This document shows, piece after piece, positions 8,129-22,917 of a DNA stretch of 41,607 bases. The translations under genes were made by a program, and so were the position numbers. Under the pieces are notes generated by a model. That model searched no databases and was not told where the DNA came from. It saw only the letters and a list, made by a program, of their open reading frames with translations. The first letter of the stretch is position 1. Every line of letters begins with the position of its first letter. The stretch comes from Candidatus Woesearchaeota archaeon (GTDB lineage: Archaea; Nanobdellota; Nanobdellia; Pacearchaeales; GW2011-AR1): the NCBI GenBank assembly GCA_964421685.1, contig CAYQXU010000001.1, positions 1 through 41,607 of the forward strand, given 5' to 3'.

Positions 8129-9514
8129 ATGAAGAGGTTTTTGATTTTTTTTGTTTTAGTTTTAGGATTAATAATTTTTATACAGGCAAAGCCACCTGTA
8201 GGTGTTTGCCCTATTCAATCAGATACAAATGTTGTTTTTTATGGAGAGACTGGATTTGGGGGTGTTGGAGATTTAAGCAAGTCATGGATAACTCATTTTT
8301 TAGATTGGTGGAAACAACAAGATCCTTCAATAAAATATGTTATTTTAGACAGCAACGATGTAAAATACGACTGTAATCTTTCAAACTATTCTGCTGTAAA
8401 AGTCTATATACAGCCTGGTGGAAATGCATATTATCAACAAAAGCAGCTTGGATCTTTAGGAAAGAGCAATATTAATAACTACATAAATAGCGGAAAAGGT
8501 TATGTTGGAATTTGCGCTGGATTTTTTTATGCGGCAGGAGATTATTACTGGCAGGGAAGCTATTATAATTGGCCAAATTTACTCGGGAAATACCCTACTG
8601 TTGAAGGATCTATAACAAATATAGCTGACTATGATTTAAGCCCAGGATACGCTTTGACTGGCGTAAGTAATGGGAATCAAATGATTTATTATGGAGGGCC
8701 AACAAGAGGGTGGAAACAGACCCCTACTAATTTCCCGGGCAGATCTCTTCTTAACTTTTCTGCAATTCCAGGAAATCTACCTGCGTCCATAATGAATAAT
8801 AATATGCTTTTGATGAGTGTTCATGCAGAGGCATTTGAAAATGATGGAATACAAGGCTTGACAACTGAACAGAGAGTTCAAAATTATATATGGTTCGCAA
8901 ATTCAATAAACACTGTTTCAGGAACTAATTTTTATGTCCCTCTGCCTCCCTCTTATGAATGCAGCGATGGTATTGATAATGACTTAGATGGCTTTATAGA
9001 TTATCCTTTAGACCCAGGCTGTTCATCAAAATTTGACAATACTGAGTCTCAAGCTCCTGGAGAGATTTTCTTTGATGATTTTGAATCTGGATTAAGCACG
9101 TGGACTTTAAGCGCTGTTTCTGGAGGAAATAATTGGGTCCAGAGCTCAAGCAATCCTTATCAAGGAAGCTATCATGCACAAAGCCAGCCAATGTCTACTT
9201 CAGAACCTGCTTCTGTTATGGAAAAGGCAGTGTCTACATTAGGATTTAGCAATGTTAAAGTAAGCTATTATAGAAAACTTGTAGGATTAGACTCGGCTGA
9301 CGAATTTCAAGTTAAATGGTTTGATGGAGCAAGTTGGACTATACTTGAGCAGACTGGATCCAATAGCGCCGATGATGTTTCTTATTTATATAAAGAATTT
9401 ACTCTTCCAAGCTCTGCATGGAATAATCCCGCATTTGCAATAAAATTTGAATGCACTGCCGGAGCCGTTTCTGAATATTGCCTTGTTGATAATGTAAAAG
9501 TGTTTTCGGCTTAA
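8129..9514 (+). CDS. Secreted protein: BPL_N/class-I-glutamine-amidotransferase-like domain, Asp-rich Cys motif, and C-terminal beta-sandwich domain
   Basis: Signal peptide, then YIQPGGNAYY...GKGYVGICAGFFYA (GATase1-like/BPL_N pattern), then CSDGIDNDLDGFIDYPLDPGC. The C-terminal domain (FFDDFESGLSTWTL ... YCLVDNVKVF) is homologous to aa about 160-305 of the 1493-aa protein. Confidence 0.6.
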   Translation: MKRFLIFFVLVLGLIIFIQAKPPVGVCPIQSDTNVVFYGETGFGGVGDLSKSWITHFLDWWKQQDPSIKYVILDSNDVKYDCNLSNYSAVKVYIQPGGNAYYQQKQLGSLGKSNINNYINSGKGYVGICAGFFYAAGDYYWQGSYYNWPNLLGKYPTVEGSITNIADYDLSPGYALTGVSNGNQMIYYGGPTRGWKQTPTNFPGRSLLNFSAIPGNLPASIMNNNMLLMSVHAEAFENDGIQGLTTEQRVQNYIWFANSINTVSGTNFYVPLPPSYECSDGIDNDLDGFIDYPLDPGCSSKFDNTESQAPGEIFFDDFESGLSTWTLSAVSGGNNWVQSSSNPYQGSYHAQSQPMSTSEPASVMEKAVSTLGFSNVKVSYYRKLVGLDSADEFQVKWFDGASWTILEQTGSNSADDVSYLYKEFTLPSSAWNNPAFAIKFECTAGAVSEYCLVDNVKVFSA

Positions 9515-9569
9515 TCTTTTTTTCTTTATACAGAAACTTTTAAATACAATAAATGGTACTTTAAAGTGT

Positions 9570-9806
9570 ATGAAAAAAAGTATTACTAAAAGTCCTTTAA
9601 AAAGTACGGTTAATCGCACTAATATGAAAGGGCAAATATTAAATATTCTTAAAAATTTAGAAAAGCCTCTTTCTACGGCAGAGATAGCACAAAATCTTAA
9701 CAAATCTTGGCATACTATAATAAGGTATTGTTTGGATCTTGAAAACGAGAGTAAATTAATTAAATTTGAGATAGGTCGGATTAGTGCTTGGCAAATTAAA
9801 AAATGA
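9570..9806 (+). CDS. Small winged-helix DNA-binding protein
   Basis: ILNILKNLEKPLSTAEIAQNLNKSWHTIIRYCLDLENESKL fits a wHTH pattern. The likely start is the ATG at 9624. The stop overlaps the next gene's start (ATGA at 9803-9806). Confidence 0.6.
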   Translation: MKKSITKSPLKSTVNRTNMKGQILNILKNLEKPLSTAEIAQNLNKSWHTIIRYCLDLENESKLIKFEIGRISAWQIKK

Positions 9807-12800
9807 AAGAGCAGGTGATAAAAAATGAGAAGCAATTTGCACAATGGTTTAGAAAGAACTACAAAGAATTAGGTTATTCAAAAATAATAAGAGGGGATAT
9901 TTCAAGGTGCCCTGATTTTATAATGTTAAGAAATGGTAAAGAGGTGAGAGTTGAGTTAGAAACAATATCATCTAATTTTATTGCCCATAAACATTCATTA
10001 GATTCTATTGATGAAATTATTTGTTTAATTAAAGATGTTGATTTGGGAAAGCCTACTAGAGAAATTAAAGAGTTAAAATTTGAGGGAAATAGGAAAGTTA
10101 CACTAAGCCTTGATGATAAAGTTTATTCTGACTTTCAGAGATTTTGCGAGGAAAATGCTATTATGCTTTCTAAGAAAATTGAGCTTTTAATGAGAGATCT
10201 GCTGAATAAAAAAAAGAATTTTCTTCTGATGTTTTTTTTAGGAATCTTTTTTATAAGTTTTGTCAGCTCTTCAACAATACTATTTGATGGTTTTGAATCT
10301 GGAGGATTGGCAAATTGGACCCTTTGGAGCAATGCAGGGGCGAACAGCAATTGGACAGCTTCAAGCACTGACCCAAATACAGGAACTTTTCATGCTAATG
10401 GAAATCCAAGAACAACTAATGATCCAGGGATAATAATGAATCAAAGCATTAATACTTCAGGATATAAAAATATTACATTTAGCTATGCAAGAAAACTTAA
10501 TTTAGGAACATCGCTTAAGACATTCAGAGCTAAATGGTATAATGGGACAATTTGGACAATAGTTGAGAATGCAAATAATACAGTAGATTCTGTTTACGTA
10601 AATAAAAATTTCACTTTATCATCCTCTGCAGACAATAACTCAAATTTTAAAATAAGCTTTGATTGTACAGAAGGAACAACAACTGACTATTGTAGAGTTG
10701 ATGATGTTAACATTTCTGGAAATGTAATAGACACAACGCCTCCACAGATTAGCATAACCTATCCTTTAAACTCTTCTTATAATATTAATGTAACTGCGTT
10801 GAATTATACAGCAAGCGACAATTCTGCTTTAGATAAATGCTGGTACAGCTTGAATAATGGAGTTACTAATACAACAATTACATGTGGAAATAATGTAAGC
10901 GGGTTAAGCAGCAACGAGGGAAGCAATACCTGGAAGGTTTGGGCAAACGATACTGCAGGAAATCTCAACTCTTCCAGCAAAACCTTTTTTGTAGACACCA
11001 TAAGCCCTAATATATCTATAATCTCACCTTTGAATCAAACCTTTACTAATGCAACAATACTTGTTAATCTATCTGCATCAGACTCTAATGGAGTTTCTCA
11101 AATTTGGTTTTATAATGGAACGGCAAATGTGAGTTATTCCTCTCCAGCTTATTACACTTTTCCTCAAGGATCTACCACAATTATTGCTTACGCAAATGAC
11201 ACAATAGGAAATCTCAATTCTTCTAATAAAACCTTTTTTGTAGATAGTGTGATTCCGAGCATTGTTATTTATTCTCCACTAAATACAACTTACAACTCAA
11301 GCAGTGTTTTCTTGAATTATTCTGCAAGCGATTCTAGCGGAATAAGCGCTTGCTGGTACTCCAGAGATTCAAATCCTAATATTTCATTGGTTGGCTGTTC
11401 TACAGCAACTCTAACAGGATTTAGTGATGGTAGCCACAATATAAGAGTTTATGCAAACGATACTGCAGGAAATTTAAATTCATCAACTGCTTATTTTTCA
11501 GCGGATTCAACACCTCCATCGTGGAGCGGCGTTCAAAGCTCTACACCTGGAGCTTACTCGGCTCAAGTTTCTTACTTTAATGTTACATGGAATGATTCTT
11601 CTGGAGTATCAAGTGTTTTATTTGAAAGCAATTTTTCAGGATCAAATCAAAATTATTCTATGAGCTTGATTTCTGGAAATGTTTATGGGTTCAATGCAAC
11701 TTTGCCTGCAGGAACATTTTATTGGAAATCTTACGCCAACGACACTCTTGGCAATTTGAATGTAAGTGCTAGCCAAATTTTCACAATTTCTAAAGCATCA
11801 AATCCAGTAGACTTGTATATCAACGGGAATAAAAACCAAAATACAACAGTTTTTTATGGGAATCAAACTAATGTTACAGGAGCAGCATTTTCTGGAGGAA
11901 TTTCTATTTACAAAAATGGAGTTTTAATTTCAAATCCTGAAATAGCTGTTCTAGCTGCAAACTTGTCTGGATATATTTATAATGCAACTAGTGCAGGAAA
12001 CCAGAATTACACAAGCAACTCAACAATAATTTATTTAATTGTTAACAAATCAACTCCAGGATTAAATATGCTCATTAACGGAAATGCAAGCAGCTCAAGC
12101 TTAGTTTATGGGAATGTTTCTAACTTAACTTCTTACGAATTTAATTCAGGAGATGATGATGTTGTGTACACTTTATATCGAGATGGAATTGCAATAGGTT
12201 TAGGATCTTCTGTTCAAGATGTCGGTGTTTTAGGAGTTCAAAATTATACTTATACTTATAATACCTCTGGCGGGAGCAACTATTCAAGCAATTCTTTAGC
12301 AAGAAATTTAGAAATATCAAAGGCTAGCCCTAATGTAACTCTTTTGCTCGATGGATCTAGCTCTGATTTATCAATATCTATAAATGATGTTTTAAATGTG
12401 AGCGCTTCCATTTACTCTCCGTCTACTGGCTCAATTGATCTTTATGAGGACTCTAGCTTAAATTCTTCTGGAACAATTATTTCAATTCAAAAAAACTATA
12501 CTAGCCTAGGAAATAGAGTTTGGAAGACTGTTTTTTTAGGAAACCAGAATTACAGCGCTCAGAACATTTCATATACTGTAAGTGTTATAGATTCTAACTC
12601 GCCGCATTTTTCTAATATCAAGGTTTCGCCAAGCTCACAATCAACTTACTCGCCAAATAGAACTTACCAATTTAATATAACCTGGACAGATGATATTGCT
12701 ATTGACAATGTGATCTTCAGTTTTAATGGAACTAACTATAGCTTTTCATCAGGTCAAGTTAAAAGAAATGCAGATGAATATTATATGAACATTAGCAATT

Positions 12801-14284
12801 TAGGCGCTGGAACTTACGTATACAGATGGTATGCAAACGACACTTCAGGAAACTTAGTAGCAACTTCAAACCAGAATTATATTGTTGACAAAGAAATTGC
12901 TGCATTATTTTTGACAATTGTGCCAAGCAGCAGTGTTGCTTACGGAACTCAAACAAGCGTCAGCTGCTCTGCAAATAACTTTGAATCTTCATTATCGTTG
13001 ACTAGAAATGCAGCTGGTGTTTCAAACCCTGATGTAAATAATTTCTCTGTTGGAACTTATAATTATGCTTGCACTTCTGTTGCTACACAAAATTATACAA
13101 GCGCCAGCGCTACAGCATCTTTACTAGTAAGCAAGGCAGCGCCTGTAATTAATATTAGCTTAAATGGAGTTAGCAGCGACTTGGCCTTACCGTCAAGCGG
13201 CGGTTTAGTTGAAATAAACGCAAGTCTTGTTTCCCCATCTAGTGGGACTATTAATTTATCAATAGATGGAAGCTTTGTTGCGTCTAATAGTTCATTTATC
13301 CATTATACAAATTCATTTTCTTCTTCTGGAACTCATTTAGTCAATGTTTCATTTGATGGAGATGAAAATTATAGTTTTGGATACTCTAATTATAATGTTG
13401 TCGTGGCGTCGCCGTCTTCTAGCGGCAGCAGTTCTGGCGGGTCAAATGGAGGAAGCTCTGTAAAAAGCTTTGTTGTTCAAAAGAAAGCTGATTTATATGT
13501 GGGAAGTATTCCTGCATTGGTGGTTAGCTCGCCAGGCGTAAAGAAAATTGTAAGCTGGGATGTTAAGAATAATGGGTCTAGTTTTTTAAATGACTGCAAA
13601 TTTAAGAGCGCTGGCTCATATGCTTCTTGGATAACTAAGACAGAAACAAAAGGCTTGGCTGCCGGAGAAGAGTATAGTTTTGTTTTTGATGTTAACATAC
13701 CTGAAGAGTCTAAGGAAGGAAAATACCTTATGCATGTATTGCTTGACTGCAGTGAAGTAAGCAAGTCAGCTGACTTTTTTGTTGAGATTCAGGGAAAACA
13801 AGTTGATTTCAAGTTGGTTGATGTTGAAAGAGCTGGCAAAGGAAATGTAAAAGTTAAATATAACATAAGCGAGCTTAAAGGGATAAATCAAAACCTTGAG
13901 CTTCAATTCTTAATCTTTAGTCTTGACAATAAAAAGGAAGCTGAAGTTAAAGAAGCTAAATCAATTCTTGCAAACTCAAGCCAGGAGTTTGAAACCACTA
14001 TTCCTATAAAGGAGACACTCCAAGGCGATCTAAGTTTGCTTGTTAACATTAATTCTGAAACTTATTCTAGTTTTGTTCAGGAAAATATTGTTCTTGGAAG
14101 CCCTGTCAGCGGGTTTACAATATTCGGGGGTTTAGCTAGAAGAGACTCCTTAATAAGCATTTCATTAGTTTTGCTATTTTTTGTATTCGCATTTTTTATT
14201 GTAAAAAGAATAAGAAGCCATCATAGGGTAATCAAAGGAAATCGTCTTAGACAGAAATATGCGTCGATGCTAGCTGCTTATTAA
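9803..14284 (+). CDS. Giant (1493 aa) membrane-anchored surface protein with an N-terminal cytoplasmic PD-(D/E)xK-like plus RHH module
   Basis: aa 1-95: nuclease-fold-like pattern (PDFIML..GKEVRVELE..SSNFIAHKH...DEIICL). aa 97-136: RHH pattern (KVTLSLDDKVYSDFQRFCEENAIMLSKKIELLMRDLL). aa 137-157: KKK plus a hydrophobic segment. The rest is >1250 aa of repeated Ig-like modules dense in N-x-S/T sequons, then a C-terminal TM and basic tail. Confidence 0.8.
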   Translation: MKEQVIKNEKQFAQWFRKNYKELGYSKIIRGDISRCPDFIMLRNGKEVRVELETISSNFIAHKHSLDSIDEIICLIKDVDLGKPTREIKELKFEGNRKVTLSLDDKVYSDFQRFCEENAIMLSKKIELLMRDLLNKKKNFLLMFFLGIFFISFVSSSTILFDGFESGGLANWTLWSNAGANSNWTASSTDPNTGTFHANGNPRTTNDPGIIMNQSINTSGYKNITFSYARKLNLGTSLKTFRAKWYNGTIWTIVENANNTVDSVYVNKNFTLSSSADNNSNFKISFDCTEGTTTDYCRVDDVNISGNVIDTTPPQISITYPLNSSYNINVTALNYTASDNSALDKCWYSLNNGVTNTTITCGNNVSGLSSNEGSNTWKVWANDTAGNLNSSSKTFFVDTISPNISIISPLNQTFTNATILVNLSASDSNGVSQIWFYNGTANVSYSSPAYYTFPQGSTTIIAYANDTIGNLNSSNKTFFVDSVIPSIVIYSPLNTTYNSSSVFLNYSASDSSGISACWYSRDSNPNISLVGCSTATLTGFSDGSHNIRVYANDTAGNLNSSTAYFSADSTPPSWSGVQSSTPGAYSAQVSYFNVTWNDSSGVSSVLFESNFSGSNQNYSMSLISGNVYGFNATLPAGTFYWKSYANDTLGNLNVSASQIFTISKASNPVDLYINGNKNQNTTVFYGNQTNVTGAAFSGGISIYKNGVLISNPEIAVLAANLSGYIYNATSAGNQNYTSNSTIIYLIVNKSTPGLNMLINGNASSSSLVYGNVSNLTSYEFNSGDDDVVYTLYRDGIAIGLGSSVQDVGVLGVQNYTYTYNTSGGSNYSSNSLARNLEISKASPNVTLLLDGSSSDLSISINDVLNVSASIYSPSTGSIDLYEDSSLNSSGTIISIQKNYTSLGNRVWKTVFLGNQNYSAQNISYTVSVIDSNSPHFSNIKVSPSSQSTYSPNRTYQFNITWTDDIAIDNVIFSFNGTNYSFSSGQVKRNADEYYMNISNLGAGTYVYRWYANDTSGNLVATSNQNYIVDKEIAALFLTIVPSSSVAYGTQTSVSCSANNFESSLSLTRNAAGVSNPDVNNFSVGTYNYACTSVATQNYTSASATASLLVSKAAPVINISLNGVSSDLALPSSGGLVEINASLVSPSSGTINLSIDGSFVASNSSFIHYTNSFSSSGTHLVNVSFDGDENYSFGYSNYNVVVASPSSSGSSSGGSNGGSSVKSFVVQKKADLYVGSIPALVVSSPGVKKIVSWDVKNNGSSFLNDCKFKSAGSYASWITKTETKGLAAGEEYSFVFDVNIPEESKEGKYLMHVLLDCSEVSKSADFFVEIQGKQVDFKLVDVERAGKGNVKVKYNISELKGINQNLELQFLIFSLDNKKEAEVKEAKSILANSSQEFETTIPIKETLQGDLSLLVNINSETYSSFVQENIVLGSPVSGFTIFGGLARRDSLISISLVLLFFVFAFFIVKRIRSHHRVIKGNRLRQKYASMLAAY

Positions 14285-18351: not shown

Positions 18352-21300
18352 TCATTTTTTTACTGCTTTTTTGTATATGCTTCCTATATTTCTCTGGTCT
18401 CTTTCAACTAACGACGATATTTCTGAATATTTAAGGCCCTTTTCTTTTAGATGAACAACTATTGATTCTAGTATTGTCAGCTTTCTATTCTTGAATATTT
18501 CTATCGGCAGGGTGTAGCCTTTTTCTTTTATCATTAAAGGATCTTTCTTCTTTTCATAAGCTTTCTTGTAGGCTGTCCATATTGTTCTTTCATCTCTCAA
18601 CAATTGCTTTGAAATTTCCCTATAGTTCATTCCAAGGTTTTCCTTCATGTATTTAACTAAAGATTCTAGCGCTCCTAGTTCTTTTGTGAATATAGACACT
18701 GGGATATTCTTTTGCTTCATTTCTATTATTTCTGCAATCTCTTTTTCACTCAAGCCATATCTTTCTTTCATTTCCTTGATTATTATTTCCAGCAGCTCTT
18801 TTTTATCAAGTGTATATTTTTCTTTTAGCTCGTCCATAATTAACCCTAAAGCCTTGACAAGTCTGTCTTCCTTGATCCCTTTCTTTTTCTTTCTTGATTT
18901 AGGAATTATAAGAGCGAGAAGCACTGTTACACTCCACGACCCGTATGCGGAAGATGAATATGACTGCTGGCTTAGGCTTGAAGGCAGTCCTGTAAGACAG
19001 AAGTATAAATTTTGCTGTCCTGATGTAAAGTTTCCGTAGTTTAATGAATTATTCCCTCTTTGAAGCAATGCTGAGGTTATGTTTTTGGATGTTGCATTAG
19101 CCATTGTTGTTCCAGAACAGCCTTGGGATATATTCTGGATGCTGAAATTTGCAGCATAAATAAATTCTGTTGTAGTTGTTTCCCCCCTTAAATTATAAGC
19201 TGTGACATTTGTATCAAGAACTTCATCATTTCCTGTGTTATTTATCAAGATAGGGTCATTATTGGAGCCTACATTCGTCTGCCATGTAACAATCTGATCC
19301 CATCCTAGCGACGTAGGACTCATAACCATTGATGTAAGTGTGTTATATGTGAATGTTGTTGATGAGTTTTCTGCATAGCTTCCGCTATTGTCTTTTATTG
19401 TTGCATTAATTGTCCATGCTGCAGGCTTGTCGAAATATTGCATTGAAATTGTGCATGTAAAATTAATATCATTGCCGACTGGGACAGAGGTATTTATGCA
19501 GCTTGTGTTCTGTCTTGTTGTTTCACCTGAAAATTGAAAGTAAGCTGCTGCAGTGCTGATATTGATTGTAGAGCCGCCGTTTGCATCTGTTGCTGTGAAG
19601 TTGAATGTTATTGCCTTTGTTGAAGATTCTGTTGGATTTTGCGCAGAGATTGCGTTAACTGCTCCTATTGTTGGAGCTACTTGGCTGATTATGTTGACAA
19701 CATAGGAATTATTTAATCCTAAATTTCCTGCGCTGTCATTAACGTACACATTTATTGTTCTATTTCCATCTGCAAGACTTGTCAAGGGGATTGATGTTGT
19801 GTTACACCAACCATTGGATACAGATAGAGTTGTATTTGTTCCATTTACTTCAATACTACATGAAACAGGTAAGGTTGTCACATCAGTTGCAGAAATGTTT
19901 AGTGTTAGAGTAGCTGTATTTTGTTTTTGAGTTGCGTTAGTATAGGCAGGCAGAGTTATTGTAGGTGCAGTCGTATCTACAATAAATGTCCTGTTTGCTG
20001 ACGTGAATGCAGAATTTCCCACAGTATCATTTCCCCAAGCAGCCCAAACGTATTTTCCATCGGAAATGCTTGCTACTGTGACGTTCCACCATGAATTATT
20101 TAATGGAGTTGCGTTTGTCTGATTTGCTATCCAACTCCCACTCCAATTTCCATAGAGTGCTAAATAGTTAACTGCCACATTATCTGCTATTTTTAGATCA
20201 AAAGTAACTGATTTTGAACTTGAATTGTAATTGTCTACGGGATTTGTTCCAAAAGTTAGATTTGGGGCTACTGCGTCAACTATTATTGTCCTATTGCTTG
20301 ACCAACCCTCGCCCCCAGAAGAATCATTACACCTTATTCCCCAAATAAAACTTGAGTTAGATAAACCACTTGTTGATAGATTATACCATGTAGCGTTAGT
20401 TGGAGAAGATTGGGTTGTTTTTGCTGCCCATGTTCCTGTGTCGTTTGTCCATATTTCCAAAGCTGATAATGTGGAATCTATGTCGTCAGTACACTTAGCA
20501 TCAAATACAGCTGTTGTACTAGCAGTAGTGTTTGCATTAGCAGGATTTGTTCCAAGAGCAGCTATTGGATTTAAATCTACTTTAGTTACATTGAGCTGTG
20601 AATTATTTCCTGAAGAATTAAATAAAACATATCCTCGATAAGTACCATTATACCATAACTCAGTTCCAATGAAATGTCCAGCGGGAAGCAGGTATCCTGA
20701 AGAATTTGAACAACCTGTGGAATTGCTTCTGTATGTTGGAGCAATTTGATTACAATTAAAACTAAGTGGACTCGAGCAAATTTGTGCTTTTGTTCCACAA
20801 GCTGAGTCAGTACAGTCAAGTACACGATATAGATTTATGTAACGGTCTTTTGTTAAAGTACTGTTTGATGCATTGCACCAGATACCTATTGGGAAAGCTC
20901 CAGAGAGATTTGTGTTTACTGCGAAAGAACTGCTAATAAAATACACAGATTGATTTCCGGTGGCAACCCAATCAGCAACCGCCGATCCTGTTGAAGTACC
21001 TAAAGACTGATTAGACACATTTCCTGAAGAAGATATTCCTCTGAAATAATAAGTTGTTAAAACGTTTGTTGGATCGACAATGTGATCAATTTCAACACTT
21101 CCTCCGACAACTTTTAAATCAAATGTCTCTTGGCTGTTTTGCAAGCTTGTTAAAAGAACTTTGTTGTATTGATTATCTTGGATGTTTGTGAATTCTGCTA
21201 TTTTTGTACTCGAGTCTTTTTCATAAACTTCTATTTTTGGCGAGCCACTTATTTTTCTTGGATAAATGGTTATATCATTTGAAGATGTAAGATTTTTTTC

Positions 21301-22917
21301 GAAAGTTACTCTTACGTAATCTTGGTTTGGAATAGTTTCGCTCCAAATTCCATCAAGTTTTTTCACTTCTTCGTAAATATCTGAGAGGAAGTTTTTATCT
21401 TTATCTAAGTGTTCGGCCTTTGTAATAACTATAATTTCAAATGTCTGGTTGCTTAAGCTAGGGACGAGCCATTCTATATAGTCATAAATTCCGTTGCTGT
21501 CTTTATCTTGCACAGAGCTTGGAGATAGATAAGTATTTTGCTCTATCCAATGAATTTTTATTCTTGAGGGATCTTTTAATTTAAGAGATTCTGGCAGATT
21601 TGTGAATGCAAGAACATTTGTGTAGTGGATTCCATCTGGAGAAGAAATCTTTATTCTTTTCCCTCTTGAAATTGTTTCTTCTAAAACTGATGGGGCAGGG
21701 GTTTCGTATTCTAATTCATATATGGAAGAAGAATCCCCTATAGAAATTTCAAGAACAGATGGTCCGGATTGGGAAGGACTCATTTCTTTCTCCGAGACAT
21801 CTGCTTTGATTTCCTTCAATTTTATTTTTTGAGCATCTTTAGGAATTGATATTTTTGTTTTGCCTGTTTTTTTTGGCGTAATTGTTTGCTTCCACTTTAC
21901 ACTTTCTCCTATTTTTCCAGGAAGCTGTATTGTTGTTATATTAAAATCTTGAGTCATGTTTTCTGCTGTTTCATTAACGTTTGTTATGTTGGTTTCTGTT
22001 ATGTTTCTTGGAGGAGTTATTGTTATATTTGTAATGTTTTCTTCTGGTGCTATTTCAGGCACTTTTGGCTTTTCTATGATAATTCCATAGTTTATCCTAT
22101 GAATTTTTAGTACTGTTCCAGCCCCTCCACCATCACCCCGACCACCCACCCCTTCATTCGAAATTTCAATCTTTATATTGTAAGATGACTTATTTAACAA
22201 AAGAGATTCTATATTGCATGTTTCTTCGCAGATATTGGAGAAATTAATGATTTTTATTTGCGAAGGAATTTCCTCACTTGCATTTGTTGCATTTGAAGAA
22301 GTGCCGAAAAACGATTCTTGAATTGCTCCTTGCTTTGAGTTTGGAAAAATTGAACTATCTAAAATTAAGATTTTATCAAGGTAAACTTTAACGATTCCTT
22401 CCCCTTTAATTAGACCATCAATATTGACATAACTTAAATTTCCTTGATTTTCAAGTTTCCATTCATAAGTTGTTGAGTCATTAGTTTCTATGTTTATTTC
22501 TTGAAAAAATTCTTGCTTCTCAATGCTAATTTCAGGAGCTCTCCCTTCTGAAACTAAAAATCCAGTGAGTTTTATGTTTGCTAGTTGAGAGAAAGCGAAT
22601 GTGAGTGCGATTAAAATTATTGAGAAAATTAATATGTTTATTGTGTGATTTTTAATTATGTGTTTTTTATGTTTTTTTATTTCAATTTCACACTCTTTTA
22701 TGTGATTATCATAGTGATTAATGTATTCATGAATATTTTTTCCATCGTGCTTTTTATGATGTGTTTCAATAAAATTAGCATATGTAATTTGTTTTTTATG
22801 ATAAGCATGATGTAGGTTTTCTAAGTAATTCTGGAGATGTTTTTTTCTAATATTTGCTTCTTTAATTTGCTCTTTGAGCTGGGCTATAGAAGCTTTTGCT
22901 AAGCGAGTCCTTTTCAT
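18352..22917 (-). CDS. Giant (1521 aa) two-TM surface protein with His-rich N-terminal and tandem-HTH C-terminal cytoplasmic domains
   Basis: aa 1-92: His/Lys-rich. TM at aa 93-112. About 1200 aa of sequon-rich ectodomain with Ig-like modules. A short hydrophobic segment (VTVLLALIIP) plus KSRKKKKG. A 182-aa tail with two Tfx/LuxR/sigma-r4-like HTH repeats. Confidence 0.8.
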   Translation of the reverse strand: MKRTRLAKASIAQLKEQIKEANIRKKHLQNYLENLHHAYHKKQITYANFIETHHKKHDGKNIHEYINHYDNHIKECEIEIKKHKKHIIKNHTINILIFSIILIALTFAFSQLANIKLTGFLVSEGRAPEISIEKQEFFQEINIETNDSTTYEWKLENQGNLSYVNIDGLIKGEGIVKVYLDKILILDSSIFPNSKQGAIQESFFGTSSNATNASEEIPSQIKIINFSNICEETCNIESLLLNKSSYNIKIEISNEGVGGRGDGGGAGTVLKIHRINYGIIIEKPKVPEIAPEENITNITITPPRNITETNITNVNETAENMTQDFNITTIQLPGKIGESVKWKQTITPKKTGKTKISIPKDAQKIKLKEIKADVSEKEMSPSQSGPSVLEISIGDSSSIYELEYETPAPSVLEETISRGKRIKISSPDGIHYTNVLAFTNLPESLKLKDPSRIKIHWIEQNTYLSPSSVQDKDSNGIYDYIEWLVPSLSNQTFEIIVITKAEHLDKDKNFLSDIYEEVKKLDGIWSETIPNQDYVRVTFEKNLTSSNDITIYPRKISGSPKIEVYEKDSSTKIAEFTNIQDNQYNKVLLTSLQNSQETFDLKVVGGSVEIDHIVDPTNVLTTYYFRGISSSGNVSNQSLGTSTGSAVADWVATGNQSVYFISSSFAVNTNLSGAFPIGIWCNASNSTLTKDRYINLYRVLDCTDSACGTKAQICSSPLSFNCNQIAPTYRSNSTGCSNSSGYLLPAGHFIGTELWYNGTYRGYVLFNSSGNNSQLNVTKVDLNPIAALGTNPANANTTASTTAVFDAKCTDDIDSTLSALEIWTNDTGTWAAKTTQSSPTNATWYNLSTSGLSNSSFIWGIRCNDSSGGEGWSSNRTIIVDAVAPNLTFGTNPVDNYNSSSKSVTFDLKIADNVAVNYLALYGNWSGSWIANQTNATPLNNSWWNVTVASISDGKYVWAAWGNDTVGNSAFTSANRTFIVDTTAPTITLPAYTNATQKQNTATLTLNISATDVTTLPVSCSIEVNGTNTTLSVSNGWCNTTSIPLTSLADGNRTINVYVNDSAGNLGLNNSYVVNIISQVAPTIGAVNAISAQNPTESSTKAITFNFTATDANGGSTINISTAAAYFQFSGETTRQNTSCINTSVPVGNDINFTCTISMQYFDKPAAWTINATIKDNSGSYAENSSTTFTYNTLTSMVMSPTSLGWDQIVTWQTNVGSNNDPILINNTGNDEVLDTNVTAYNLRGETTTTEFIYAANFSIQNISQGCSGTTMANATSKNITSALLQRGNNSLNYGNFTSGQQNLYFCLTGLPSSLSQQSYSSSAYGSWSVTVLLALIIPKSRKKKKGIKEDRLVKALGLIMDELKEKYTLDKKELLEIIIKEMKERYGLSEKEIAEIIEMKQKNIPVSIFTKELGALESLVKYMKENLGMNYREISKQLLRDERTIWTAYKKAYEKKKDPLMIKEKGYTLPIEIFKNRKLTILESIVVHLKEKGLKYSEISSLVERDQRNIGSIYKKAVKK
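18934..19675. repeat. Direct repeat, copy B (partner at 17411-18155)
   Basis: See copy A. Same orientation, offset about 1.5 kb. Confidence 0.9.

Follow-up and report, generated by a model that had tools for sequence, protein, structure and literature searches.

A nuclease-like and ribbon-helix-helix module fused in frame to a giant surface protein in a Woesearchaeota archaeon

DPANN archaea need contact with host cells, for which giant, fast-evolving surface proteins are prime candidates, and to our knowledge nothing is known about how these giant surface proteins are controlled. Here, we analyzed a stretch of 41,607 nucleotides (nt) from Candidatus Woesearchaeota archaeon, a DPANN archaeon of the symbiotic type with tiny cells (assembly GCA_964421685.1, contig CAYQXU010000001.1, positions 1 to 41,607; hereafter the window, AT-rich at 33% GC). 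A single open reading frame (ORF) in the window runs from a PD-(D/E)xK-like domain through a ribbon-helix-helix (RHH) domain and a Lys-rich signal peptide into an immunoglobulin (Ig)-repeat surface protein that ends in a C-terminal membrane anchor. We show that this is a genuine, heritable gene fusion. From its sequence we infer a membrane-tethered DNA-binding/nuclease module on a surface protein, a known idea that would here be built from an undescribed domain family. For its function, we give about an even chance to a DNA-binding regulator at the head of the operon that would be tethered to the membrane via the signal peptide of its own target and probably be cut from it by signal peptidase.

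The fused reading frame and its relatives

The fused ORF follows a gene for a winged helix-turn-helix (wHTH) protein, whose TGA (9804-9806) overlaps the ATG of the fused ORF (9803-9805) in the ATGA at 9803-9806, just as an earlier note on this DNA had described. The parts of the locus are as follows (TM, transmembrane; aa, amino acids).

9570..9806, + strand: wHTH gene, 78 aa; NCBI MBI3623066.1, 'HTH domain-containing protein'
9803..14284, + strand: fused ORF, 1493 aa; NCBI MBI3623065.1, 'hypothetical protein'
9803..10081, + strand: PD-(D/E)xK-like domain, aa 1-93
10088..10210, + strand: RHH domain, aa 96-136; strand KVTLSL, helices 105-117 and 122-136
10208..10215, + strand: A8 homopolymer in the Lys codons of the junction; a T8 run follows at 10232-10239
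10190..10273, + strand: Sec-type signal sequence inside the ORF; M130, n-region K136-K138, h-region F140-V154 (10220-10264), c-region S155-S157
10274..14149, + strand: extracellular region; N-terminal domain of ~146 aa (aa 159-304), then Ig-like repeats
14150..14284, + strand: C-terminal TM anchor LISISLVLLFFVFAFFIV (aa 1450-1467), basic tail and stop codon, read over the last 75 residues

From 9803 the frame contains no stop codon until 14282. The nuclease-like segment includes the peptides CPDFIML (aa 36-42), GKEVRVELE (45-53), SSNFIAHKH (56-64) and DEIICL (70-75), the RHH stretch reads KVTLSLDDKVYSDFQRFCEENAIMLSKKIELLMRDLL (aa 98-134), and the KKK is followed by the hydrophobic stretch FLLMFFLGIFFISFV (aa 140-154) and then SSS. 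Around 1290 extracellular residues lie between the signal sequence and the C-terminal TM segment, and NxS/T sequons number 76 over the whole ORF. Pfam assigns Big_7 to four stretches of the ectodomain (E value 9e-10) and gives weak matches to Big_13, PKD and NPCBM_assoc, next to a weak OmpL47-type barrel match in NCBIfam.

Our first hypothesis was an assembly or sequencing artefact, in which a 1-nt error in the A8 or T8 run falsely joins two genes. Both homopolymers sit right at the junction, the majority of homologues are encoded as separate genes, and the two assemblies of the source data that contain the same ORF (JACQCI010000067.1 of GCA_016201665.1, and the Logan assembly of SRR12113410) probably go back to the same reads. 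A word-index search with aa 1-133 also returned stand-alone homologues only (31 of 31, 134-162 aa), which end 3-10 residues past the LLNKKK position. For the part upstream of the signal sequence (nuclease-like plus RHH domain, hereafter the N-module), neither this search nor a library of 50% representatives returned fused proteins of >1400 aa; the window protein is its own cluster representative in that collection, so that a verdict of 'always separate' drawn from those searches is misleading. Scans of one-genome-per-species contigs and JGI metagenomes did return fused relatives, in five further lineages.

L008, CAZCCD010000009.1: ORF of 1542 aa, junction ELLIKEFLSNKNNKKISLFFILFGMFFISLVGA/TT
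L009, CAYZNI010000001.1: ORF of 1845 aa, junction ENVMKELMKKKFVFFGFALLIFLTFFASSA
L010 (= L032), JBBSXB010000007.1: ORF of 1521 aa, junction ELAIKDIMKKKRVLMFFLFSFILIFSLQG
L030, Ga0209514_10032664: ORF runs off the contig end, junction MSAKKKKTAVLIFSFLAVLLIGMVSA/AQ
L034, Ga0172375_10000153: ORF of >1142 aa, junction AKNKKIAAVFLGFVFLMFFATVCA

The run from the module into KKK, a hydrophobic segment and a giant ectodomain that the earlier note had read in the window is hence present and recurs. Because five divergent lineages, with N-modules diverged by 30-40%, carry the same in-frame junction with differing junction sequences, we reject the artefact, to which we leave almost no probability. The junctions of L008, L009 and L034 contain no long homopolymer, and the distance from KKIE to the first adhesin motif is 40, 42 or 43 residues among the fused junctions; such in-frame length differences indicate that the reading frame was maintained repeatedly. 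In all seven fused loci examined, the other two frames across the junction are full of stops and the fused frame is open. The N-modules of the fused lineages differ at 29-36% of residues with a ratio of nonsynonymous to synonymous rates (dN/dS) of 0.06-0.15, at saturated dS, and with every residue of the domain signature (see below) intact, which places the module under purifying selection while fused. The ectodomain of the window protein is homologous to those of L008, L009 and L010 at 32-56% identity.

Fusion is the rarer state. Among the distinct loci that encode both N-module domains and have a readable junction, 6 are fused and ~23 unfused (~23 of 29). Hence, where the earlier note had asked whether related genomes conserve the fusion, most orthologues have two separate genes, but not all. 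A neighbour-joining tree of the N-module groups L008, L030, L010 and L007, three fused loci and an unfused one, with a bootstrap of 77/100, and monophyly of all fused loci has 0/100 support, with the deep branches unresolved. Two types of adhesin N-terminus, FxDGFESGG..NWT and FxDxxQxDFNNGTY, are each seen both fused and unfused. The unfused L007 is one nucleotide away from the fused state, by deletion of one A in AAAGAAAAATGG. Conversely, with A7 instead of A8 the N-module of the window would end in ...LLNKKRIFF*, with a TGATG overlap onto the ATG at 10229, and L010 has the same A8/TGATG geometry, where loss of one A gives the unfused state. The fused state thus appears to be labile, and in the window, L010 and L007 a single-nucleotide indel in the A-runs of the Lys codons would toggle it. 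If the two states do interconvert by indels, the fusion may be a labile, clade-specific variant of a two-gene arrangement. The end of the RHH domain and the signal peptide abut without a spacer, so that continuity of the frame alone is not evidence of an adaptive fusion.

The domains of the module and their operon

An AlphaFold2 (AF2) model of aa 1-137, built with 32 homologues, has a mean confidence (pLDDT, predicted local distance difference test) of 93.8. Its first 93 residues, in the order helix 9-23, strands 27-31, 39-43 and 46-55, helix 58-62 and strand 71-76, have the alpha-beta-beta-beta-alpha-beta topology of the minimal PD-(D/E)xK core. Helix 1 carries E9, P37-D38 mark where strand 2 starts and strand 3 contains E51-L-E53; the full signature is E9, P37-D38, E51-L-E53, S57-N-F59, H62-x-H64, D70 and C74. 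Over 149 representatives, conservation is 96% for E9, 95% for P37, 96% for D38, 96% for E51, 99% for E53, 93% for F59, 95% for H62, 93% for H64, 93% for D70 and 90% for C74. The canonical Lys position of (D/E)-x-K is thereby taken by E53; D..ExE variants of PD-(D/E)xK exist, as in BamHI. Residues this close to invariant look like the signature of a catalytic or metal-binding site and not of a degenerate fold. It shares the core, the helix-1 Glu, the PD at strand 2 and the E-x-(E/K) on strand 3 with minimal PD-(D/E)xK nucleases (Hjc, Bax1, VRR-NUC, BamHI-like), but it has an invariant Glu for the Lys and an extra invariant SNF-x2-HxH-x5-D-x3-C motif.

Fold searches gave sub-threshold matches only, though of a consistent theme. 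The best Foldseek match in the PDB is the Holliday-junction resolvase Hjc (1gef; E value 0.2, probability 0.77, 48 aligned columns; weak), followed by other weak matches at E values of 0.2-3 to Hjc resolvases, Bax1, I-Ssp6803I, tRNA endonuclease, McrC and type II restriction enzymes. In BFVD, the Foldseek matches (E values of 0.035-1.3) include proteins named 'Holliday junction resolvase' or 'restriction endonuclease', the best being a 'Restriction endonuclease' at 0.035, and a profile search of PDB sequences weakly aligned the PDF...EVxVE region to 8gy8 (E value 0.12). The PD-(D/E)xK-like start of the ORF proposed in the earlier note, which had suggested structure prediction of aa 1-140 as a check, accordingly stands on the AF2 topology and the motif, without a significant match. 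The nuclease-like domain falls under no family of Pfam, NCBIfam, PADLOC or PHROG. The family comprises 836 cluster representatives at an E value of <=1e-3, the best 150 of which are all <=413 aa long, and close homologues of the N-module number at least 31. An origin from a defence system or phage was rejected, with PADLOC and PHROGs empty for the N-module, and a mobile or toxin-antitoxin reading was dropped because the locus shares synteny with core genes (in Pacearchaeota, PCNA).

The RHH domain, which the earlier note had read from its sequence pattern, superposes on known members of this fold. Modelled alone, aa 93-137 reach a pLDDT of 93.4, with helices at 13-25 and 30-43 after an extended N-terminal segment. 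Foldseek aligns it to CopG with a template-modelling score of 0.73-0.76 and a root-mean-square deviation of 1.6-1.7 over 42 residues, and to StnY with a score of 0.8. Nearly all top matches are RHH proteins (MatP, CopG, StnY, NikR, Arc, ParD, MazE), at probabilities of up to 0.94 and with E values of only 0.16-3 because the domain is small. A profile search of the PDB gave the archaeal-virus RHH protein SvtR (2kel; E value 0.07). Curated profiles gave no match above threshold for the window RHH (DUF6364, at an E value of 0.036, is under the cut-off); the corresponding region of homologue P0105 passes Pfam RHH_1 (21.1 versus 20.5 bits), and homologue P0035 matches the PHROG Arc-like repressor at 3e-4. 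The assignment is firmly supported at the level of the fold, and DNA binding is predicted from it. The domain is the same ~42-residue beta-alpha-alpha unit as in the Arc/MetJ/CopG repressors (CopG, Arc, NikR, SvtR, ParD/MazE antitoxins), but it follows a nuclease-like domain and, within this clade, comes directly before a membrane segment.

The 78-aa protein upstream passes the Pfam cut-offs for FaeA (22.3 bits, cut-off 20.7) and HTH_12 (21.9 bits, cut-off 21.4), stays just under that for HTH_11 (E value 2.3e-5, 24.6 bits, cut-off 25) and also matches Csa3/CasR-type wHTH proteins in PADLOC and NCBIfam. Its orthologues stand upstream of the N-module in most loci, commonly with a 4-nt overlap. 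Two elements precede its start codon.

9539..9546, + strand: TATA-box-like element TTTAAATA; 24 nt separate its end from the wHTH ATG downstream
9555..9567, + strand: GGTACT motif (9555-9560) and overlapping perfect palindrome ACTTTAAAGT (9558-9567), between TATA box and start codon; candidate operator

In the 14 loci aligned on the wHTH ATG, the TATA-like element stands at the same distance, and a motif search added four more loci. The promoter pattern, read in the window and in L008, L030, L040, L046, L013, L034, L044, L010, L005 and L007, is TTTAAATA, 8-9 nt, (G/A)GTACT, ~9 nt and ATG. At positions -15 to -10, (G/A)GTACT is kept in the window and in the first eight of these loci (L008 to L010), despite saturated synonymous sites. 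Most genes of the window have no Shine-Dalgarno (SD) sequence and similar boxes ~25-30 nt upstream, which suggests leaderless transcripts, and the TATA spacing of the cassette likewise suggests a leaderless promoter. From its position and conservation, the GGTACT/palindrome element is a candidate operator to which the cassette proteins are predicted to bind. A second AAAAGTAC lies at 9600-9607, inside the wHTH gene (~30-40 nt after its start), and codes for the conserved 'KST' in a Lys/Ser-rich N-terminal tail. Part of the conservation of this tail may stem from the DNA itself, which would then serve as a second operator half-site.

The order wHTH gene, N-module gene, secreted-protein gene forms a conserved operon. 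In L003, L005, L007 and L029, a wHTH protein of 76-93 aa and an N-module of 143-153 aa precede a large secreted protein, with the N-module stop overlapping or abutting the next start, and in L003, L005 and L029 a GGAGG SD sequence lies within the 3' end of the N-module gene. Of the 69 unfused loci that could be evaluated, 65 are followed within a few nucleotides by a gene for a protein with a hydrophobic (signal- or TM-like) N-terminal segment. Pacearchaeota-type loci have PCNA upstream and, downstream, a ~258-aa protein followed by a secreted protein of ~1260-1350 aa. The ~258-aa protein (L017-L025, L055-L096) has a class III, type IV pilin-like signal, for example KKAQVTIFVIIA, and in L022 a second copy of its gene is flanked by small nucleotidyltransferase/HEPN-like genes.

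The modules are also permuted. Beside the wHTH gene followed by a nuclease-like-RHH gene, there is an RHH gene followed by a nuclease-like-wHTH gene (P0030/P0031 type), and the nuclease-like domain is also fused to an HTH_24/AsnC-type domain, to a TFIIB repeat, to RHH_1 plus an NTP-transferase, or to an N-terminal RHH-like DUF7557. The swapped loci (L014, L015, L018, L020, L024, L025 and many of L054-L096, from Pacearchaeota and Woesearchaeota) have an RHH gene of 45-55 aa before the nuclease-like-wHTH gene, and the wHTH of P0030/P0031 resembles the separate wHTH protein of the window. On the contig of P0105 (ENA ERZ27297570), a gene for a 413-aa protein of nuclease-like domain, RHH_1 and NTP-transferase precedes an EamA transporter gene and two genes of the SecD/SecF family. 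Again the module is joined to the opening gene of an operon, this time beside protein-export components.

In Hadarchaeota, a 360-aa protein (L026, 945-2027; L027, 6209-7291) consists of DUF7557, the nuclease-like domain, a MarR-like wHTH and a CTP-dependent riboflavin kinase (PF01982, E value 7e-45); its stop codon overlaps the RibB start, and two genes of the DMRL-synthase (lumazine-synthase) family come next. By this domain content and neighbourhood, it is an RbkR-type regulator that carries the same nuclease-like domain. RbkR itself is an archaeal regulator that combines a wHTH with a CTP-dependent riboflavin kinase (PMC5397151). It is likewise a DNA-binding regulator fused to the product that it heads or controls, but the fused partner in the window is an exported adhesin and not a cytoplasmic enzyme. 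We know of no nuclease-like domain in canonical RbkR.

Upstream of the cassette, a secreted protein of 461 aa (8129-9514, + strand) has weak BPL_N/glutamine-amidotransferase-like matches at its N-terminus and a C-terminal domain (aa 313-458) that is 45% identical to aa 159-304 of the adhesin (10277-10714) and 63% identical to the counterpart in L008. L010 and L028 have the same gene before the cassette, which makes the neighbourhood syntenic, and the C-terminal domain is common to neighbouring surface proteins. A second giant ORF of the window (18352-22917, - strand, 1521 aa) has a His/Lys-rich, helical cytoplasmic extension of ~95 aa before its TM segment TINILIFSIILIALTFAFSQLA; cytoplasmic N-terminal extensions of giant surface proteins are hence not unique to the fused ORF.

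A proposed tethered regulator and the alternatives

By inspection, the junction has the features of a Sec class I signal, with K136-K138, the h-region F140-V154 and small residues at V154-S-S156, atypical in being placed 130 residues into an ORF. The mature N-terminus, xxIxFDGFESGG, lines up with those of unfused orthologues whose signal peptides are ordinary N-terminal ones (L007, ...NIVEA/NTIMFENWESG; L016, ...LTFS/DEIFFDDFESG), and the c-regions of fused proteins are small at -3/-1 (VSS/S, VGA/T, VSA/A). This alignment and the small residues make cleavage by signal peptidase likely, and they agree with the Sec-type signal peptide that the earlier note had read from the internal ATG at 10190.

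The same note had drawn from that ATG the idea of two isoforms, for which the sequence signals give no support. The adhesin could be made mainly from 10190 (codon 130, M130) or from the other in-frame ATG near the junction, 10229 (codon 143, M143), with a signal peptide beginning MRDLLNKKK..., or slippage on the A8 run could free the N-module. An in-frame Met does stand before KKK in the window, L009, L010, L030, L034 and L028, and A7 would give the classical TGATG stop/start overlap in the window and L010. However, neither ATG is preceded by an SD sequence or a TATA-like box, M130 is a conserved residue of the RHH helix that is present also in unfused homologues, and L008 offers only a TTG before its hydrophobic segment, with neither ATG nor GTG in frame. 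These points favour translation from 9803, and ribosomes that start there must make the fusion since no stop intervenes before 14282. Two separate products from the fused locus are therefore doubtful, with a slim chance in our estimate.

The regulator at the head of the operon, our preferred account, would work as follows. The operon would be transcribed from the leaderless TATA promoter and translated from 9803 in coupling to the wHTH gene through the ATGA overlap. The last RHH helix runs via the Lys-rich stretch into the Sec signal sequence of the adhesin, and the hydrophobic segment would act as an internal signal whose KKK side is cytoplasmic. The folded N-module would stay in the cytoplasm and the ectodomain would be exported and N-glycosylated, a topology expected from the positive-inside rule and from the unfused orthologues. 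Signal peptidase would cut the adhesin free at the small-residue c-region, leaving it held by its own C-terminal TM segment and leaving an N-module of ~16-18 kDa tethered to the membrane by the signal peptide. Together with its wHTH partner, the N-module would regulate the conserved GGTACT/palindrome promoter; the cells would be small enough for membrane tethering still to permit access to DNA, and the tether would link the supply of regulator one-to-one to adhesin export. A regulatory role is favoured because of the DNA-binding partners, the operon-head position, the RbkR- and TFIIB-type fusions and the conserved promoter motif. That the module is a conserved operon-head element also favours regulation over the structural role, on the cytoplasmic face of an adhesin, that the earlier note had in mind.

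A first alternative takes its model from the SPEARE proteins of Nanohaloarchaeota, giant surface adhesins that have, beyond a single TM segment, a conserved region of restriction-enzyme type in the cytoplasm (Hamm et al. 2019, PMC6642349). This cytoplasmic region is described as a type III restriction-enzyme domain, and the proteins also have serine protease and laminin-G domains. In one member the orientation is reversed, with the TM segment N-terminal, and the cytoplasmic and extracellular parts occur in different size fractions, which suggests processing (PMC6642349). SPEARE is the closest DPANN precedent, of which the fused protein, compared by description only, is an analogue and not a member: it has a minimal domain of ~95 aa plus an RHH, and Pfam finds only Ig-like, PKD and NPCBM_assoc domains in it, with no protease, ResIII or helicase domain. 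On this model, the N-module would be a metal-dependent nuclease, active and targeted to DNA, that works on the cytoplasmic side of a host-contact adhesin and, for example, processes DNA entering there. The link would be covalent in this clade and non-covalent where the genes are separate, and the wHTH and RHH would serve DNA recognition and not control of transcription. The documented existence of SPEARE itself, the acidic set E9/PD38/E51xE53 at canonical PD-(D/E)xK positions, the 90-99% conservation of the signature including HxH, D and C over the 149 representatives, the theme of the fold matches (Holliday-junction resolvases, Bax1, restriction enzymes) and the fact that fused genes commonly mark physically interacting partners all speak for it. 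But the canonical Lys is replaced by Glu, the fold matches are below significance, the domains that characterize SPEARE are missing as above, and the presence of the same module in an RbkR-type regulator of a riboflavin operon and in TFIIB- and AsnC-type fusions fits transcription better. We therefore regard a nuclease of this kind as possible though unlikely.

The layout also recalls the transmembrane transcription regulators (TTRs), which are reported to occur widely among bacteria and archaea (PMC10269533). ToxR, CadC, TcpP and the archaeal ArnR/ArnR1 have an N-terminal cytoplasmic DNA-binding domain, one membrane segment and a large extracytoplasmic part, and the fused ORF likewise unites an RHH (aa 96-136) and a hydrophobic segment (aa 140-154). 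Working as one polypeptide of this type, it would keep its signal as an uncleaved anchor, sense the surface or host contact with its ectodomain and relay this to the RHH/nuclease-like module. Beside the shared layout, the hydrophobic segments of 18-21 residues in L008, L009, L010, L030 and L034 are long enough to span the membrane, and the giant protein at 18352-22917 has its cytoplasmic N-extension before a TM segment too. The h-region of the window has only 15 residues, however, the -1/-3 residues are small, the mature end aligns with orthologues that have cleavable signals, there is no linker between RHH and TM segment, and unfused relatives work without a covalent link. Other differences set the ORF apart from TTRs: its RHH stands behind a PD-(D/E)xK-like domain where TTRs have an OmpR-type wHTH, its membrane segment has features of a cleavable signal where TTRs have true anchors, its ectodomain is an Ig-repeat adhesin of >1200 aa with its own C-terminal anchor, and most of its orthologues are two separate genes. 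The RHH is absent from the text of the TTR survey (PMC10269533). An uncleaved sensor of this kind is, in our view, rather improbable.

Several points weigh against a tethered regulator. In ~80% of the relatives the two parts are unfused genes with overlapping stop and start, and the fusion may be selectively neutral, 'locked in' with no extra selection needed. With almost no linker between the C-terminal RHH helix and the membrane segment, an RHH dimer that is tethered could be impeded in binding DNA. The E-PD-ExE-HxH-D-C signature looks as much like that of a nuclease, at the least, as like that of a passive regulator domain, and topology, cleavage and DNA binding are all predicted from sequence. 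A further point concerns two RHH-only versions (L028/P0181 and L098/P0184), which in themselves speak for the fusion and in which RHH, Lys-rich stretch, signal peptide and adhesin domain follow each other, each behind its own AT-rich, TATA-containing upstream region. Their adhesin ORFs are interrupted, by a frameshift in L028 (~3262) and by an in-frame TGA in L098 (~673), and coding potential extends past each interruption. Either gene may be a decaying copy or paralogue, or the result of an assembly error at low coverage. The interruptions weaken these loci as proof that RHH, TM segment and adhesin form a functional unit, and we give them little weight.

An RHH-only gene of another kind was seen on a 583-kb Nanoarchaeota scaffold (L099, 4900-5273). 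This 90-aa gene (P0188) overlaps the start of a secreted protein of 1180 aa, and a second RHH-coding stretch, KQKVTLSIDKEVYKHFKQYCEENAIMLSKKIEL, lies just upstream in another frame. The pair may be a tandem or rearranged RHH, and no nuclease-like domain was seen nearby.

Implications for DPANN surface proteins

In the literature, we found no description of the cassette or of the nuclease-like domain family, the nearest concepts being TTRs, SPEARE and RbkR. The locus reveals an enzyme-like domain family of 836 cluster representatives that has a near-invariant signature and no curated match. In Woesearchaeota and Pacearchaeota, this domain is systematically paired with wHTH and RHH modules directly upstream of genes for secreted proteins. 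Its repeated fusion through a signal peptide is 'Rosetta-stone' evidence that a DNA-binding/nuclease-like module in the cytoplasm and a surface protein are functionally linked. For annotation, the locus calls for caution, given that a 'hypothetical protein' of 1493 aa combines two units which most relatives encode separately.

A more far-reaching conjecture, which we think improbable, is that an active DNA-targeted enzyme acts with the adhesin at sites of host contact, a miniature of the SPEARE principle across Woesearchaeota and Pacearchaeota, and that the A-rich junction is a slippage switch between a free and a tethered form. If this were true, the junction switch would amount to a phase-variation-like control of a DPANN surface system. 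With a small soluble domain, a candidate operator and a predicted cleavage site, the locus offers a testable handle, which would serve the study of how DPANN adhesins are regulated or of SPEARE-like DNA handling at contact sites.

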